Source of the DNA: an uncultured virus (IMG/VR IMGVR_UViG_3300035208_006940)
Lineage: Duplodnaviria > Heunggongvirae > Uroviricota > Caudoviricetes
Reading direction: 5' to 3' (one strand)
DNA length: 20,000 nt
Virus record (IMG/VR): IMGVR_UViG_3300035208_006940
Shown piece after piece: positions 3,039 to 19,883 of the stretch; within the stretch, counting starts at the first letter, position 1, and every line of letters begins with the position of its first letter. The notes under the pieces were generated by a model, which ran no database searches, was not told where the DNA came from, and saw nothing but the letters and a program-made list of their open reading frames with translations. Both the position numbers and the translations under genes were made by a program.

Positions 3039-3608
3039 ATGGCGAGTGTTTGTAGTCGTTGTGGTCGTCGTGGTCCTCTGGCCAAGGATTCGGCAACGTC
3101 GACAGGGTCATCGTCGTGGTGCCGTCGTTGCAAACGAGAAGCGGTTTCGAGCTGGGCCAAATCACCGCGTGGGCGGGCAGTTCGTGCGTGGCTGTCGCTG
3201 GCCATGCGGGCTGGCAATAGGAACGGGAAAGCGCCAGCCTATGCCACAGTCGAGGTGCGAATGACTCGCGAAGAGTTTCTTGCGTGGGCTATTCCGGCTC
3301 ACACGAGGTGGATGTGTCGACATCCGGGTGAATGCCCCTCTGTCGATCGTAAGAATCCTGAAGGGCATTATGAGATTGGAAATCTTCAAATCTTGTCGCA
3401 ACCTGCCAACAGTGCCAAACACCGAGAGGATAAGAATCGTCGGGCACCTCGCGGCAAGGCGTGGTGTAGTGGGTTCTGTAAGCAGTATTTGCCTGTAGCC
3501 TGTTTCAACAAAAATCGGTCAACCGCGAACGGGCTTCAGCCCGTCTGCAGAACATGTTCCAAGGAGTTTGGTACAAGATGGAGAAGAAAAGCAAAGCTTC
3601 GCAAGTAA
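3039..3608 (+). CDS. HNH-type (homing) endonuclease with flanking Zn-ribbon motifs
   Basis: AGGAGAGG RBS; PSVDRKNPEGHYEIGNLQILSQPANSAK matches the SIDRIDN..GY...N-type HNH core; CxxC motifs at both ends; visibly more A/T-ending codons than neighbours. Confidence 0.75.
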   Translation: MASVCSRCGRRGPLAKDSATSTGSSSWCRRCKREAVSSWAKSPRGRAVRAWLSLAMRAGNRNGKAPAYATVEVRMTREEFLAWAIPAHTRWMCRHPGECPSVDRKNPEGHYEIGNLQILSQPANSAKHREDKNRRAPRGKAWCSGFCKQYLPVACFNKNRSTANGLQPVCRTCSKEFGTRWRRKAKLRK

Positions 3609-16783: not shown

Positions 16784-16907
16784 AAGAAGCAGCGGCGTGT
16801 CGCGTCACGCGCTGAAGGTGGAGTAAGCCTGCAAGGCCCACTTAGGCAAGTGCCGAGCGAAAGCTTTTGTGCGCAATACGGCCGGTAGCCAATCCGGCCT
16901 GCTTCTT
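16784..16907 (+). ncRNA. candidate structured, tRNA-like ncRNA of unknown class
   Basis: 9-bp closing stem AAGAAGCAG/CTGCTTCTT stacked on a GCCGG-TAGCCAAT-CCGGC arm; internal hairpins GCGTG/CACGC, GGTGG/CCACT and AGC-GAAA-GCT; followed by a T-rich tract. Confidence 0.45.
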
Positions 16908-16927
16908 TTCCTTTCTTCGGAGATCAC

Positions 16928-17161
16928 ATGGCCAAGAAAAAACAGCAGAGGCAGGCGAAAGTCTGTCGCGGCATTCCTACCACAGTTCTCTACAGCGCCG
17001 AAGACTTGCGAACGGTCAAGATGGCAGCCCTCTCTGTCGGACTGCCCAAGCGAGAGTTTGTACGGCAGGAGTCGGTGAAGGCGGCGTTGAAGATAATGCA
17101 CTCGGCACTGCCGAAGATTCGGGCTAGTGCAGACAGAAAGAGCGAACCTTCTCGACCGTAG
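16928..17161 (+). CDS. ribbon-helix-helix-like DNA-binding protein
   Basis: GGAG RBS; PTTVLYSAEDLRTVKMAALSVGLPKREFVRQESVKAA fits the strand-helix-G-helix RHH pattern. Confidence 0.6.
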   Translation: MAKKKQQRQAKVCRGIPTTVLYSAEDLRTVKMAALSVGLPKREFVRQESVKAALKIMHSALPKIRASADRKSEPSRP

Positions 17162-17168
17162 TAGTGTC

Positions 17169-17197
17169 TTTACAGCGGGGAGGCTCTGTGCTACAAC
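17169..17197 (+). promoter_or_regulatory. sigma70-like promoter upstream of the Y RNA array
   Basis: -35 TTTACA (17169-17174), 17-nt spacer, extended TGn, -10 TACAAC (17192-17197); 22 nt upstream of unit 1. Confidence 0.55.
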
Positions 17198-17219
17198 ATC
17201 CTCCCGCACGAGACAATAC

Positions 17220-17346
17220 AGTCCTGTGGCGTACAGATCTCGGGTACTTCGTGAGAAGATGATTGGTTCGATTCCAGTTTCGCTGCCGCCTTCAACGGTG
17301 GCGAAGTGCAAGGAGCACACCCCGAGCCTGGCCTGTTCCCAGGACT
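17220..17346 (+). ncRNA. Y RNA-like unit 1 (degenerate permuted tRNA-like module)
   Basis: Closing stem AGTCCTG/CAGGACT; TGGCG, TACTTCG, GTTCC; T arm ATTGG-TTCGATT-CCAGT; closed acceptor-like hairpin TTCGCTGCCG/CGGTGGCGAA; mini D arm GTGC/GCAC. Confidence 0.75.
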
Positions 17347-17353
17347 TTGATAC

Positions 17354-17501
17354 ACGCGGCATGGCGTTAGGTGATACATACTTCGGTTAATCTTTGGGCC
17401 GTTGGTTCGAGTCCAACCTCCCCCGCTCAGTGATGTTCGGGGGAGTAGCTCAGTTGGCTAGAGCAAAAGACATGAAGTTTCACCGCCTGTTCCTGCCGCG
17501 T
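17354..17501 (+). ncRNA. Y RNA-like unit 2 (YrlA-type, permuted tRNA mimic)
   Basis: Closing stem ACGCGGCA/TGCCGCGT; T arm GTTGG-TTCGAGT-CCAAC precedes acceptor CTCCCCC/GGGGGAG and D arm TA-GCTC-AGTTGGCTA-GAGC; upstream of Ro60. Confidence 0.85.
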
Positions 17502-17507
17502 AACGTA

Positions 17508-17586
17508 CAAGCCCATGGCGTAGCAACTGGGGTACTTCGTCCTTCGGAGTCGATTCGTTCCCCGATCGCGATTGTTCCTGGGTTTG
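17508..17586 (+). ncRNA. Y RNA-like unit 3 (minimal, cUUCGg hairpin, no tRNA module)
   Basis: Closing stem CAAGCCCA/TGGGTTTG; TGGCG, TACTTCG, GTTCC; TCC-TTCG-GA tetraloop hairpin. Confidence 0.7.
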
Positions 17587-17591
17587 CAATA

Positions 17592-17739
17592 CAACTGCAT
17601 GGCGAAGAAGGAGCATACTTCGCAATGGGTGCCCGAGGCCGTTGGTTCAAATCCAACCTCCCCGACTTTTTTCTCCGGGGAGTAGCTCAGTCTGGCTAGA
17701 GCGCGGTAACAGTGGCCCCTTCGCAGGTTCCTGCAGTTG
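17592..17739 (+). ncRNA. Y RNA-like unit 4 (YrlA-type, permuted tRNA mimic)
   Basis: Closing stem CAACTGCA/TGCAGTTG; GGCGAAG matches the bacterial Y RNA GNCGAAN(0-1)G motif; T arm GTTGG-TTCAAAT-CCAAC, acceptor CTCCCCG/CGGGGAG, D arm GCTC-AGTCTGGCTA-GAGC. Confidence 0.85.
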
Positions 17740-17745
17740 ACAACA

Positions 17746-17843
17746 CAAGATCCGTGGCGTACGATTTCAGCGGTTACTTCGCAACCCTATCAGTCGCGTT
17801 TGCCCGTAAGGGCTAGCCGCAGTCGGTTTGTTCCCGGAGCTTG
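17746..17843 (+). ncRNA. Y RNA-like unit 5 (GNRA hairpin, no tRNA module)
   Basis: Closing stem CAAGATCCG/CGGAGCTTG (one mismatch); TGGCG, TACTTCG, GTTCC; inner stem GCGGTTA/TAGCCGC; GCCC-GTAA-GGGC hairpin. Confidence 0.7.
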
Positions 17844-18368
17844 CTTGTGGTTGATAGCACATCACAGCTGGCAACTCGCTTCGCTAGCAGGTATCGCATT
17901 GACTTGCAGACAGGCTGCTGGATCTGGAAAGGGAAGCGGGCAGGCAATGGATACGGAGAACTGCGGGAGGGCGGCCGCGGTACAAAACGTCATCTTGCCC
18001 ATCGTGTCTCTTGGCAGATTCATCGAGGTGCTATCTCGAAAGGCGTTCTGGTTTTGCACACCTGCGATAATCCGCCTTGCGTGAATCCTAATCACCTGTT
18101 CTTGGGTACGGTCGGCGACAACAGCCAGGACGCGATGAAAAAAGGACGATTAAGAGGATTGTTCGGCGTCGGTCCCGGTCGGAAGAGCCAGCCGTTGGTC
18201 ACGCGAGTGCCTCGGGGTGAGGCGCACTATAAGGCAAAATTGACGGAGGAACAGGTCAGAGAAATCCGCAGTGATTCGCGAACAGGTCGCCAAATCGCGG
18301 CAGATTACGGTATCAGCGATGTGTTGGTATCCCAGATCAAGAAACGCAAGGTGTGGAAGCACATTTAG
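17841..18368 (+). CDS. HNH homing endonuclease (HNH_3 type) with C-terminal HTH; start uncertain (TTG 17841 or GTG 17847)
   Basis: GCWIWKG..GYG..AHRVSW..VLHTCDNPPCVNPNHLFLGT..DN..D..KGR, then RGEAHYKAKLTEEQVREIR and an HTH. Confidence 0.9.
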   Translation: MLVVDSTSQLATRFASRYRIDLQTGCWIWKGKRAGNGYGELREGGRGTKRHLAHRVSWQIHRGAISKGVLVLHTCDNPPCVNPNHLFLGTVGDNSQDAMKKGRLRGLFGVGPGRKSQPLVTRVPRGEAHYKAKLTEEQVREIRSDSRTGRQIAADYGISDVLVSQIKKRKVWKHI

Positions 18369-18379
18369 GGAGGACTTTG

Positions 18380-19819
18380 ATGGCGCGCACGAATGTGAAG
18401 ACGACCAAGTCCCATGTTTACGAGGAAACGCGGCTGGCGGGCGGCTATGGCCCGCGTGCTGCCAAGCAGCCCGCCGAGCAACAGCTCCGTCGCGCAGTGA
18501 TGGCCTGCCTGTTGTGGGAGGACATCGCCTACGCCGACGGGGCGTCCGTGGCCGCCACGATCAAGCGGCTGGTGCCCGAGGTGGACCCGCTCGCCGTGAT
18601 GAAGATTGCGGTGGCAGCCCGGTGCGATCAGAAGCTGCGGCACGTGCCGCTGCTCATCTGCCGCGAGATGGCCCGGCTGGAAACGCACAAGTCGCTGGTG
18701 GCCGAGACGTTGGCCCAGGTCATTCGTCGGCCGGACGAGCTGTGTGAGTTCGTGAGCCTGTACTGGCAGGACAACGGGGGCAAGAAGGCTCTCTCGTCCC
18801 AGGTCAAGAAGGGCCTGGCCCGGGCGTTCCTGCGATTCGACGAGTACCAGTTGGGCAAGTGGAACCAGCAGGATCGCGAGATCAAGCTGCGCGATGTGTT
18901 GTTCCTCTGCCATGCGAAGCCCACCGGCCAGTTCCACACGGACCTGTGGAAGAAGCTGGTCGACGGCAAGCTGGCCGTCCCCGATACGTGGGAAGTTGGT
19001 CTGTCGGCTGCCAAGAGCGTGGCCGACAAGTGCGAGGTGTGGACGCGGCTGGTGGAGTCCGGCAAGCTTCCGGCGTTCGCTTTGATGAAGAACCTGCGGA
19101 ACATGCAGCAGGCGGCCGTGCCGCGCGCCACGATGCTCAAGGCGTTCAACGACTGTCGCCCGGACATGCTGCTGCCTATCGACTTCCTCAAGGCGGCCAA
19201 GTATGCTCCCGACTGGCAACGGGAGATCGAGAACGTGATGTATCGCTGCGCAGCCCAGTGGCCCAAGCTGCCTGGTTGGTCGATCTTCGTGGTCGACGTG
19301 TCAGGCTCCATGTCCAAGCCGTTGTCCAGCCGCAGTGAGTTCTCGCGGATGGAGGCGGCCACGGCCATGACGGTGCTGGCGGCCGAGATGTGCGAACAGG
19401 TCTCGATCTATGCCACGGCCGGGGATGACCCTTCGCGAAAGCACAAGACGGTCAAGGTCCCGGCGTACCGGGGCTTCGCCTTGTCCGAGCACATCAACAA
19501 TTTCGACTACCGCAAGCGCGGAACGCTGGGCGGCGGTGGGATCTTCACGCGACAGTGCTTGGAGTTCATCCGCAGCCAGGAGCACGAACAGCCCGACCGG
19601 ATCATCATCTTCAGCGACAGTGCTGACTGCGATTTCCCGGGCTCGGGCCAGCCCAAGCCGTTTGGCCAGCACAACTACATCGTGGACGTCTCGTGCGAAC
19701 AGCACGGAATCGCCTATGATGGGCTGTGGACGGCCGAGATCTCCGGGTGGTCCGAGCACTTCCTGCGATTCATTGCGCAGCTGGAAGGGCAGCAGGACCG
19801 CAACGAGAGCAACGAGTAA
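18380..19819 (+). CDS. rsr: Ro60-related TROVE domain RNA-binding protein with C-terminal VWA domain
   Basis: GGGAGG RBS; QLRRAVMACLLWED, KLRHVP, RPDEL, KKGLARAF.RFDEYQLGKW, KLRDVLFLCHAKP, PDTWEV.LS, ALMKNLRNM; VWA MIDAS VVDVSGSM. Confidence 0.93.
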   Translation: MARTNVKTTKSHVYEETRLAGGYGPRAAKQPAEQQLRRAVMACLLWEDIAYADGASVAATIKRLVPEVDPLAVMKIAVAARCDQKLRHVPLLICREMARLETHKSLVAETLAQVIRRPDELCEFVSLYWQDNGGKKALSSQVKKGLARAFLRFDEYQLGKWNQQDREIKLRDVLFLCHAKPTGQFHTDLWKKLVDGKLAVPDTWEVGLSAAKSVADKCEVWTRLVESGKLPAFALMKNLRNMQQAAVPRATMLKAFNDCRPDMLLPIDFLKAAKYAPDWQREIENVMYRCAAQWPKLPGWSIFVVDVSGSMSKPLSSRSEFSRMEAATAMTVLAAEMCEQVSIYATAGDDPSRKHKTVKVPAYRGFALSEHINNFDYRKRGTLGGGGIFTRQCLEFIRSQEHEQPDRIIIFSDSADCDFPGSGQPKPFGQHNYIVDVSCEQHGIAYDGLWTAEISGWSEHFLRFIAQLEGQQDRNESNE

Positions 19820-19842
19820 CCGCGTAGCCAAACGTGGACCGG

Positions 19843-19883
19843 GGCTCGGTGGATGAACGTCGTCCACCGAGCCACTTTCGTTT
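19843..19883 (+). terminator. putative intrinsic terminator / stabilising hairpin after the Ro60 gene
   Basis: 14-bp stem GGCTCGGTGGATGA/TCGTCCACCGAGCC followed by ACTTTCGTTT (interrupted U tract). Confidence 0.55.

Follow-up and report, generated by a model that had tools for sequence, protein, structure and literature searches.

Five RNA units lie in a row at positions 17220-17843 of a 20,000-nucleotide stretch of DNA from an uncultured tailed virus (Caudoviricetes; IMG/VR record IMGVR_UViG_3300035208_006940), the whole of which is referred to here as the window. Sequence reading and repeat analysis resolve these 624 nt of the plus strand into head-to-tail Y-RNA-like units, upstream of and on the same strand as a gene for a phage orthologue of Ro60/Rsr, presumed to be the partner protein of the array. 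The array ends at 17843 and rsr begins at 18353, within the 4 kb that defines the neighbourhood of the bacterial Y RNA YrlA (RF02553). In the original prediction, units 2 and 4 were described as permuted tRNA modules retaining anticodon and discriminator identity (Asn-GTT and Pro-TGG), like tRNAs opened in the anticodon loop. The locus is of a known kind, a phage Ro60 gene with YrlA-type Y RNAs, and a variant of that kind in possessing an anticodon-arm look-alike. The explanation which we favour, and consider probable, is a row of five Y RNAs before a phage Ro60/Rsr gene in which units 2 and 4 carry YrlA-type heads with such a look-alike. The anatomy of the units, the covariation of their helices, their spread through phage and bacterial DNA and their adjacency to rsr are demonstrated below.

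Five Y-RNA-like units upstream of a phage rsr gene

A unit-specific terminal stem, a 5' UGGCG(A/U)A(G) motif, a second helix, a UACUUCG heptamer and a 3' GUUCC are common to every unit. The five terminal stems are different in sequence and all paired, and each unit folds alone with its terminal stem closed (Table 1); the stem of unit 5 is also listed as AAGAUCCG/CGGAGCUU. The motif GNCGAAN0-1G, proposed as the Ro60 contact in the text of Chen et al. 2014 (PMC4201824), is present exactly in unit 4 (GGCGAAG, 17601-07) and as one-base variants in unit 2 (GGCGUUAGG) and in units 1, 3 and 5 (GGCGUA(C/G)). A hairpin formed between GNCGAAG and UACUUCG was dropped as a candidate: the helix of intervening bases covaries between units and UACUUCG is invariant to the 5' motif.

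The units differ in what this common handle carries. Unit 3 consists of the handle and small hairpins, without a tRNA-like head. The head of unit 1 is composed of a T arm (17262-17278), a 9-bp closed hairpin and a short D-like hairpin, and counterparts of this unit with a T arm only are found in two related loci, L008 and L002.

Table 1. Positions of the array, its units and the adjoining genes in the window
Feature	Position	Strand	Basis
Y-RNA-like tandem array, five units	17220..17843	+	four shared features per unit; terminal stems close on folding
Unit 1, Y RNA with degenerate tRNA-like head	17220..17346	+	terminal stem AGUCCUG/CAGGACU; fold z -2.74
Unit 2, YrlA-type tRNA mimic, Asn-like loop	17355..17500	+	terminal stem CGCGGCA/UGCCGCG; Rfam YrlA 38.6 bits; fold z -3.92
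Unit 2 tRNA-like head	17384..17470	+	sequence reading; five stem pairs all in trans
Unit 3, minimal Y RNA	17508..17586	+	terminal stem CAAGCCCA/UGGGUUUG, both motifs; fold z -1.10
Unit 4, YrlA-type tRNA mimic, Pro-like loop/acceptor end	17592..17739	+	terminal stem CAACUGCA/UGCAGUUG, 8/8 paired; Rfam YrlA 28.7 bits; fold z -1.8
Unit 4 tRNA-like head	17616..17708	+	composite 5-bp stem, 3 pairs trans + 2 local
Unit 5, Y RNA with different internal domain	17747..17843	+	terminal stem (C)AAGAUCCG/CGGAGCUUG, both motifs; fold z -1.42
HNH homing-endonuclease gene	17841..18368	+	Pfam HNH_3, E 4.4e-9; PHROG endonuclease families
Phage Ro60/Rsr orthologue (TROVE + vWA)	18353..19819	+	Pfam TROVE E 9.8e-14 + VWA_2; phrog_850 RNA-binding protein E 3.6e-35

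tRNA-like heads and a composite anticodon-arm look-alike

Units 2 and 4 share a head in which T arm, sealed acceptor-like stem-loop and D arm follow one another in that order, and both retain U8, A14, the G15:C48 pair, G18-G19 and T54-A58 within a TTCRANT T loop. The permuted topology claimed at the outset, with the 3' half upstream of the 5' half and the acceptor ends joined by a linker, is real and is the published architecture of YrlA. In unit 2, the loop CGGUUAA (17384-90) holds GTT at positions 34-36 (17386-17388) and AA at 37-38 (17389-17390), TCTTT (17391-95) pairs with AAAGA (17466-70) over all five positions, and the remaining elements are a 5-nt variable loop (17396-17400), T arm (17401-17417), acceptor stem CTCCCCC/GGGGGAG (17418-24/17439-45) with a 14-nt closing loop, and D arm (17448-64). 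Position 73 is G17425, which can pair with C17438, the last base of the loop, and is therefore probably part of an eighth stem pair rather than a free discriminator. In unit 4, the conserved UACUUCGC (17616-23) leads into the loop AAUGGGU (17624-30), with TGG at 17626-28 and G37 at 17629, followed by GCCCG at positions 39-43 (17631-35), the T arm (17641-57), the acceptor stem CTCCCCG/CGGGGAG (17658-64/17676-82) with C1:G72, A73 (17665) and an 11-nt closing loop, and the D arm (17685-17702). Acceptor pairs 2-7 are identical in the two units, the 1:72 pair and position 73 being the only points of difference; at positions 32-33 unit 2 has CG and unit 4 has AA. All triplets, flanking bases and end bases on which the original prediction relied were thus found where it had placed them, including the 5/5 stem of unit 2.

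Two details of that description required revision. The anticodon stem of unit 4 had been limited to three pairs, those which CGG (17704-06, within CGGTA 17704-08) forms in trans with GCCCG, as C27-G43, G28-C42 and G29-C41. G17622 and C17623 also pair locally with C17632 (C40) and G17631 (G39), completing a 5-bp stem round the 7-nt loop. Opening in the anticodon loop applies to unit 2, in which all five pairs form in trans and UACUUCG is continuous with the loop, leaving the loop open on its 5' side and without U33; it does not apply to unit 4 or to the usual family member, in which the break lies inside the 5' strand of the stem.

Standard annotation does not report these heads: Rfam at gathering thresholds gave no match in the window, ARAGORN found 0 tRNA genes in its native sequence and the Rfam tRNA model (RF00005) reached 14.6 bits against a threshold of 29, so that a contiguous cloverleaf is not present. 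The YrlA model detected units 2 and 4 in a permissive scan (E 7.6e-7 and 5.7e-4, respectively), and relatives in phage contigs scored 32-42 bits, also below threshold. When the halves were re-joined in silico, as had been suggested, ARAGORN called tRNA-Asn(gtt) for unit 2 and tRNA-Pro(tgg) for unit 4.

This acceptance is also what true permuted tRNA genes would give, with halves that are cut out, ligated in the anticodon region and then serve in translation. Circularly permuted tRNA genes are known from the red alga Cyanidioschyzon merolae and others and from an archaeon, where a circular intermediate is converted to working tRNAs, and they share with units 2 and 4 a 3' half upstream of the 5' half and acceptor ends joined by a short linker. 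Here, in contrast, the open ends run into a Ro60-type handle common to units without a tRNA head, and the same build recurs beside rsr in dozens of loci. The loops are not canonical, unit 2 lacking U33 and unit 4 having A33 and U38, and relatives possess ordinary tRNA-Asn and tRNA-Pro genes nearby. No bulge-helix-bulge splicing signal was seen by eye, no dedicated scan having been run. Processing and ligation into real tRNAs, offered initially as an alternative, therefore find no support, and we regard permuted tRNA genes as extremely unlikely.

Relatives extend the observation well beyond the window. A search with the Rsr protein yielded 33 viral-contig loci and 17 metagenome loci, one of which (L287, a 43.9-kb contig) is the same DNA, and a DNA pattern combining UACUUCG with a T loop matched at least 120 viral and at least 121 bacterial-genome stretches. 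From the listed stretches, 116 non-redundant permuted modules were parsed in viral DNA and 54 in bacterial assemblies; a UACUUCG-type motif 15-19 nt before the T stem is present in 47 and 30 of these, respectively, giving 77 modules. Syntenic arrays of 4-5 units upstream of rsr occur in L008 (Rsr 62% identical), L002 (46%) and 13-14 further metagenome loci. ARAGORN accepted 69 of the 116 viral modules after re-permutation with the downstream strand as 5' side of the stem and 79 with the upstream strand.

A complete 5-bp stem closing a 7-nt loop 4-5 nt before the T stem is formed in 43/47 viral and 26/30 bacterial modules, 69/77 in total. Two strands build this composite stem: the one leaving the D arm serves pairs 27:43 and 28:42, in trans, and the CGN of UACUUCGN serves pairs 29:41, 30:40 and 31:39, locally. 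As the bottom pairs draw on this CG(N), the point at which the Ro60 handle branches off lies in the 5' strand of the anticodon stem. Unit 4 follows the family build except that the change from trans to local pairing comes one pair lower, and unit 2 belongs to a minority with four or five trans pairs (6/69). In the commonest build (31 viral modules with two trans pairs), 28:42 is formed in trans in 31/31 (U:A 14, C:G 9, G:C 7, U:G 1), its local alternative failing in 7, and 31:39 is formed locally in 31/31 (A:U 14, C:G 13, U:A 2, G:C 2), its trans alternative failing in 15. Against the 43 complete viral stems, exchange of the trans strand between modules gave a mean of 24.6 and a maximum of 29 in 500 trials, shuffling of the 17-nt arm gave 2.9 with a maximum of 9, and sliding the register by 2 or 3 left 2 or 3.

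Of the 43 complete viral modules, 38 were aligned with MAFFT for an assessment of covariation; the remaining five, which have acceptor loops longer than 15 nt, were left out. T, acceptor and D helices are 95-100% paired, 13 of 16 pairs change on both sides and the observed covariation was reached by 0/500 shuffles. The two trans pairs are formed in 97.4% and both change on both sides. If all five pairs are instead taken in trans, the lower three are formed in only 22, 7 and 26 of the 38.

The loops closed by these stems follow the rules of tRNA anticodon loops. The 69 modules come from 58 loci, in which ARAGORN also called 203 real phage tRNAs. For modules and tRNAs, respectively, the counts are 59/69 and 196/203 for U33, 68/69 and 201/203 for a purine at 37, and 64/69 and 149/203 for A38. 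G is never found at position 32 (0/69). G37 follows G36 in 25/27 modules and another base at 36 in 3/42, and in real tRNAs 20 of 23 G37 follow G36. Thirty different triplets are represented, among which stop anticodons are absent (0/69). Combined, these results support the conclusion that the triplets sit in a genuine anticodon-loop look-alike and not in a random junction. Retention of loop size, U33, purine-37, A38 and the G36-G37 link over 58 diverged loci suggests an ongoing constraint on the loop, at least as a shape.

Several observations weigh against the explanation favoured here. On the 38-module alignment, which mixes builds, the three local pairs are only 74.6% formed, and pair 29:41 is served equally in trans (26/38) and locally (24/38). 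The loop of unit 4, with its A33 and U38, is less tRNA-like than the family loop, and six of the seven unit-4 orthologues with UGG carry A37. The YrlA scores of units 2 and 4 are far below the gathering score of 69, and the fold z-scores of units 3-5 are weak (-1.1 to -1.8). In addition, the family census is biased, as the search pattern demands UACUUCG near a T loop, and p-values throughout overstate the support since the family sequences are related.

A departure from the family build was seen in arrays of the L002 type (L002 3300-3450, with matching units in L289-L303). Their first tRNA-like unit has a different D arm, GUCUAGUGGUCUAGGAU, which we take to be tRNA-Glu-like; its loop region ends in CAUA(A) and no clean composite stem is formed (3/5 pairs). 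Within L002 (1-9407), ordinary genes for tRNA-Asn(gtt), tRNA-Pro(tgg), tRNA-Leu(tag) and tRNA-Cys(gca) are found at most 4 kb from Y-RNA units whose loops read GUU and UAG, the first unit allowing a GCA reading without a clean stem.

Triplet, 1:72 pair and position 73 in relatives

The fate of the putative identity elements was followed in orthologues of the two units. In 13 metagenome loci the unit-2 orthologue reads GUU-AA in 13/13, with G73 in 8 and U73 in 5. In 14 metagenome loci, several of them near-identical to each other, the unit-4 orthologue reads UGG in 7, AAG in 4 and UAG in 3, with C1:G72 in 13/14 and C73 in 14/14. Anticodon identity is thus kept in homologues of unit 2 but not in those of unit 4, in which the triplet varies while C1:G72 and C73 stay constant, the very pattern named beforehand as one that would refute the idea. 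Discriminator identity appears to be kept in neither, the picture for G73 of unit 2 being mixed, and the tRNA-Pro identity set (NGG, G37, C1:G72, A73) is not maintained together in unit-4 orthologues.

A search of 50,697 phage records returned tRNA-Asn genes as the best real-tRNA matches of unit 2, with 90% identity in two pieces to those of PA5oct-like Pseudomonas phages, and tRNA-Pro genes as the best real-tRNA BLAST matches of the 3' half of unit 4. Re-permuted unit 2 is identical to tRNA-Asn of phage MIJ3 at 62/74 positions, to four other real tRNAs at 48-53/74 and to unit 4 at 59/74; re-permuted unit 4 is identical to two phage tRNA-Pro genes at 59/75 and 57/75 and to others at 44-52, the Asn and Pro figures being biased upward because these comparators were chosen as best matches. 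The similarity of unit 2 to tRNA-Asn spans the anticodon stem (AAAGA/UCUUU against AAUGA/UCAUU), variable loop, T loop and G73, and that of unit 4 to tRNA-Pro spans the acceptor stem and A73. These matches, together with conservation of GUU in orthologues, argue against a coincidental agreement of triplets and end bases with Asn and Pro in an ordinary YrlA pair. Base rates in 43 viral and window modules (G73 8/43, A73 13/43, C1:G72 17/43) put the joint match at a few per cent, before allowing for the many ways in which a match could have been noticed; even so, chance seems to us very unlikely.

A different picture is obtained if the anticodon arm is excluded. By body alone, the nearest real tRNAs of unit 2 are Thr, Trp, Ala and Pro, with Asn ranking 17th, and that of unit 4 is Pro. 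Across the family the best body match is the cognate tRNA in 6/44 (2.6 when shuffled, p=0.034) and the cognate is among the top five in 12/44 against 9.8 (p=0.23), a weak signal, and the reference set may include a few Y modules called as tRNAs by ARAGORN. The scaffold seems to derive from a tRNA-Pro-like RNA, the Asn-type GUU-AA loop of unit 2 looks specifically conserved and selected, and the Pro-type triplet of unit 4 seems to be a remnant, now drifting, of an ancestor resembling tRNA-Pro.

The acceptor end was examined in the same manner. Real phage tRNA-Asn has G73 in 8/8, and real tRNA-Pro has A73 and C1:G72 each in 10/11. Family-wide, position 73 is the commonest discriminator of the cognate tRNA in 29/68 modules against 21.5 in shuffled sets (p=0.021, the sequences not being independent), and in 12/20 against 9.45 where the closing loop is 10 nt or longer (p=0.08). 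G73 accompanies GUU in 3/7 modules and other triplets in 5/36 (p=0.11), and C1:G72 accompanies NGG triplets in 6/8 and others in 19/61 (p=0.023). A73 is not enriched with UGG, the other five UGG modules carrying C, C, U, G and C. The median acceptor-closing loop is 6 nt, with 4 nt or less in 19/69, and of the 31 viral and window modules having a loop of at least 5 nt, 23 allow pairing between position 73 and the final base of that loop, unit 2 included. Most acceptor stems, being sealed by short loops, are therefore without a true discriminator, and in units 2 and 4 the corresponding bases most likely belong to the stem or the loop and have no role in identity.

These data bear on whether the heads might be chargeable mimics in two pieces, cut by RNase P at position 1, trimmed to position 73 at the 3' end and given CCA, so that the Ro60-bound RNA is recognised by the asparaginyl or prolyl synthetase and perhaps charged. 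The 7-bp acceptor stems with loops of 14 and 11 nt would permit this, and in vivo, according to the text of PMC4201824, RNase P cleaves the YrlA of Mycobacterium smegmatis, which likewise has a 7-bp stem, and CCA is added to it. The differences between the units at 1:72 and 73 go toward real tRNA-Asn and tRNA-Pro, the weak discriminator excess points the same way and a gene of the CCA-adding family is present in 2/5 related records. Against it stand the constant C73 of unit-4 orthologues whatever their triplet and the mixture of G73 and U73 in unit-2 orthologues, closing loops of 6 nt or less in most family members, the frequent pairing of position 73 with the loop, and the open loop of unit 2 and A33 of unit 4. 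CCA is not encoded. We consider this mode of action improbable. The CCA-adding-family gene and RtcB, the latter found in 3/5 related records (3/3 near-complete jumbo contigs), both lie far from rsr.

A more serious competitor, which we hold to be possible though clearly short of probable, is that the Y RNAs are bound by Ro60 and their anticodon-like loop, 1:72 pair and position 73 are leftovers of tRNA descent or recombination, the triplet being unread. The ancestor would have been tRNA-Pro-like, and unit 2 would have acquired an Asn-like arm from neighbouring tRNA genes. Drift of the unit-4-orthologue triplet is as expected from such relics. Leu- and Ser-type triplets occur on bodies with short, 5-nt variable loops, unlike real class II tRNAs, and these modules therefore do not copy class II tRNAs. 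Among real phage tRNAs C1:G72 is nearly confined to tRNA-Pro, yet it is common across module triplets, Pro is the best body match for many modules of other triplets, and arrays lie inside tRNA gene clusters. Relics would not be expected, conversely, to hold loop size, U33, purine-37, A38 and the G36-G37 link over 58 loci in which the acceptor stems have fully diverged, to keep GUU-AA invariant in 13/13 arrays and the window, or to avoid stop anticodons in all 69 triplets.

The location inside tRNA clusters is illustrated by two cultured phages. In Rhizobium phage RHph_TM30 (MN988521.1; L162 2556-3743), approximately eight unannotated units occupy a 1.2-kb gap before a TROVE gene; in Klebsiella phage KP13-26 (OP617743.1; L161 1266-3400), a 476-aa 'hypothetical protein' with DUF2828 and DUF7788 and a weak match to the vWA domain of Ro60 precedes an unannotated gap of 700 nt that contains YrlA-like T-arm/acceptor/D-arm modules. 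Both arrays sit inside tRNA clusters. The units of RHph_TM30 each begin with GUUGCGA(A/C/U), and in one of them (~3260-3350) D arm, loop and T arm follow the ordinary tRNA order without permutation. Two ARAGORN calls, tRNA-Thr(tgt) at L074 883-951 and tRNA-Leu(tag) at L144 287-366, overlap native-order Y-RNA modules, so that Y RNAs may underlie some of the 'tRNA genes' annotated next to phage Ro60 genes. Agreement between module triplets and real tRNA genes of the same locus (5/19, 2.1 when shuffled, p=0.026) is treated as no finding, since two of the five were ARAGORN calls on Y modules and the count falls to 3/17. In practical terms, such arrays are at present unannotated in cultured RHph_TM30 and KP13-26, and two modules were mis-called as tRNAs by ARAGORN.

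Known systems, proposed mechanism and surrounding genes

The closest known RNA is YrlA of Salmonella Typhimurium and M. smegmatis, with which the array shares rsr as a same-strand neighbour, a 5' GNCGAA-type motif, several Y RNAs per locus, the order of T arm, sealed acceptor-like stem and D arm, and the tRNA tertiary-pair positions. Pseudouridine-55 and dihydrouridine are further marks of YrlA. Units 2 and 4 differ from it in a handle with an extra helix and a UACUUCG junction, in being carried by a phage and in an anticodon-loop look-alike that is closed in unit 4 and half-open in unit 2. In the text of the Salmonella structure paper, YrlA 'lacks the anticodon loop' (bioRxiv 10.1101/312249), and published structures and models describe the tRNA-like head without one. 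The 'V arm' stem-loop of Chen et al. 2014 is probably the present anticodon-like hairpin, the two having been equated from the text alone. A full-text literature search returned no paper in which mimicry of an anticodon loop is described for YrlA or for arrays of phage Y RNAs.

Other systems resemble the array in part. In Thermus phage phiLo, phiRo60 is preceded directly by two Y-like RNAs, Yrl1 and Yrl2, with a CGAA-type motif in an internal bulge and a flanking 5'-3' stem; there are two RNAs rather than five, and the passages on phiLo consulted describe no tRNA-like head or anticodon arm. Binding of phiRo60 to these RNAs and to host PNPase has been shown in phiLo (PMC12135203). Yrn1 of Deinococcus radiodurans contains a T-arm look-alike as well as a potential 'anticodon arm', the stem of which has 5 bp, but its loop is of 6 nt, its arm order is different and a variable region is lacking; its origin is considered independent in the text of PMC4201824. 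Two-piece tmRNA likewise has a permuted tRNA-like domain, and the cyanobacterial tmRNA model gives 16.7 bits over the T arm and acceptor of unit 2 in cmscan (threshold 70 bits); both units have G:C at 3:70, without the G3:U70 alanine identity and without a tag reading frame.

Under the explanation favoured here, the five RNAs would derive from one predicted transcript that is cut into units, and each unit would be loaded on phage Ro60 through its handle, composed of the terminal stem, UGGCG(A/U)AG as a variant of the published contact motif, the second helix and the UACUUCG junction. Unit 4 and most relatives would then display a closed 7-nt loop, and unit 2 a loop open on the 5' side. With an elbow, a sealed acceptor and an anticodon-like loop, the heads of units 2 and 4 could be offered to tRNA-recognising proteins, candidates being modification enzymes, RNase P, anticodon nucleases, synthetases and repair ligases, and would either tether Ro60 and a partner nuclease to these proteins or titrate them. 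Y RNAs are known to tether Ro60 to other proteins, and the text of PMC4201824 reports that YrlA is bound by Rsr and modified by TruB and DusA. The decoy idea is not new, as Hughes et al. 2020 already suggest in the relevant passage that YrlA could be a competitive inhibitor of an anticodon nuclease, and a Ro60-like phage protein is described as countering the Ppl defence.

A further step, which we regard as doubtful, would make YrlA-type Y RNAs complete tRNA mimics in which the displayed 'anticodon' is a specificity element. If so, phages would carry a panel of Ro60-bound, isoacceptor-specific look-alikes, Asn- and Pro-type here and Thr, Leu, Gln, Met and others elsewhere. The panel might act as decoy or sensor for host nucleases directed at anticodons, or might bring Ro60, together with nuclease or ligase partners, to matching damaged tRNAs, and the units with long acceptor loops (2 and 4) would also be opened by RNase P into two-piece forms with real discriminator bases. 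If most loops of the family obey tRNA anticodon-loop rules and GUU-AA is constant in distant phages, the candidate partners narrow to anticodon nucleases of anti-phage defence, modification enzymes of the TrmD or t6A type and synthetases, a question that can be addressed with simple loop mutants.

Between the array and rsr lies the HNH gene, which overlaps each by a few bases. In the relatives L008 and L002 the array abuts rsr and the HNH gene is absent; it therefore looks like a recent insertion. The relatives of Rsr are 43-62% identical and are found in jumbo-phage contigs. Genes further downstream of rsr are not conserved in L008 or L002, and PADLOC gave no match for Rsr and seven neighbouring proteins. 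An open reading frame (ORF) at 17394-17699 on the plus strand and minus-strand ORFs across the array were rejected as coding: covarying RNA helices occupy the whole region, and a scan of one minus-strand ORF (16805-17362) gave no family match.

Possible expression signals surround the array. A terminator-like hairpin with a T run (16880-16909) precedes a 77-aa ORF without family match (16928-17161) and a GC-rich hairpin (~17175-17207) immediately 5' of unit 1; 16880-17215 may mark the start of the array transcription unit. A sigma-70-like promoter match (17737-17765; TTGACA, 17 nt, TACGAT, 10/12) lies across the boundary between units 4 and 5 and could drive unit 5, HNH and rsr, or be due to chance (1 site against 0.6 expected). 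A further GC-rich hairpin (~19841-19873) is present 3' of rsr, followed by an ORF from 19901 which is cut by the window end and whose 33 available codons gave no Pfam match.

The window also encodes DNA ligase, a NUDIX hydrolase and HNH endonucleases. By DNA, only one cultured relative was found, a Brevundimonas jumbo phage with a weak match. A weak match to a phiKZ-like internal head protein (2401-2988; E 5.4e-4, below the cut-off) and the occurrence of Rsr relatives on contigs of 300-470 kb hint at a jumbo-phage origin of the window. Contigs of identical DNA are present in landfill and groundwater metagenomes, from which the window may originate, along with short matches to tRNA-like parts of other organisms.

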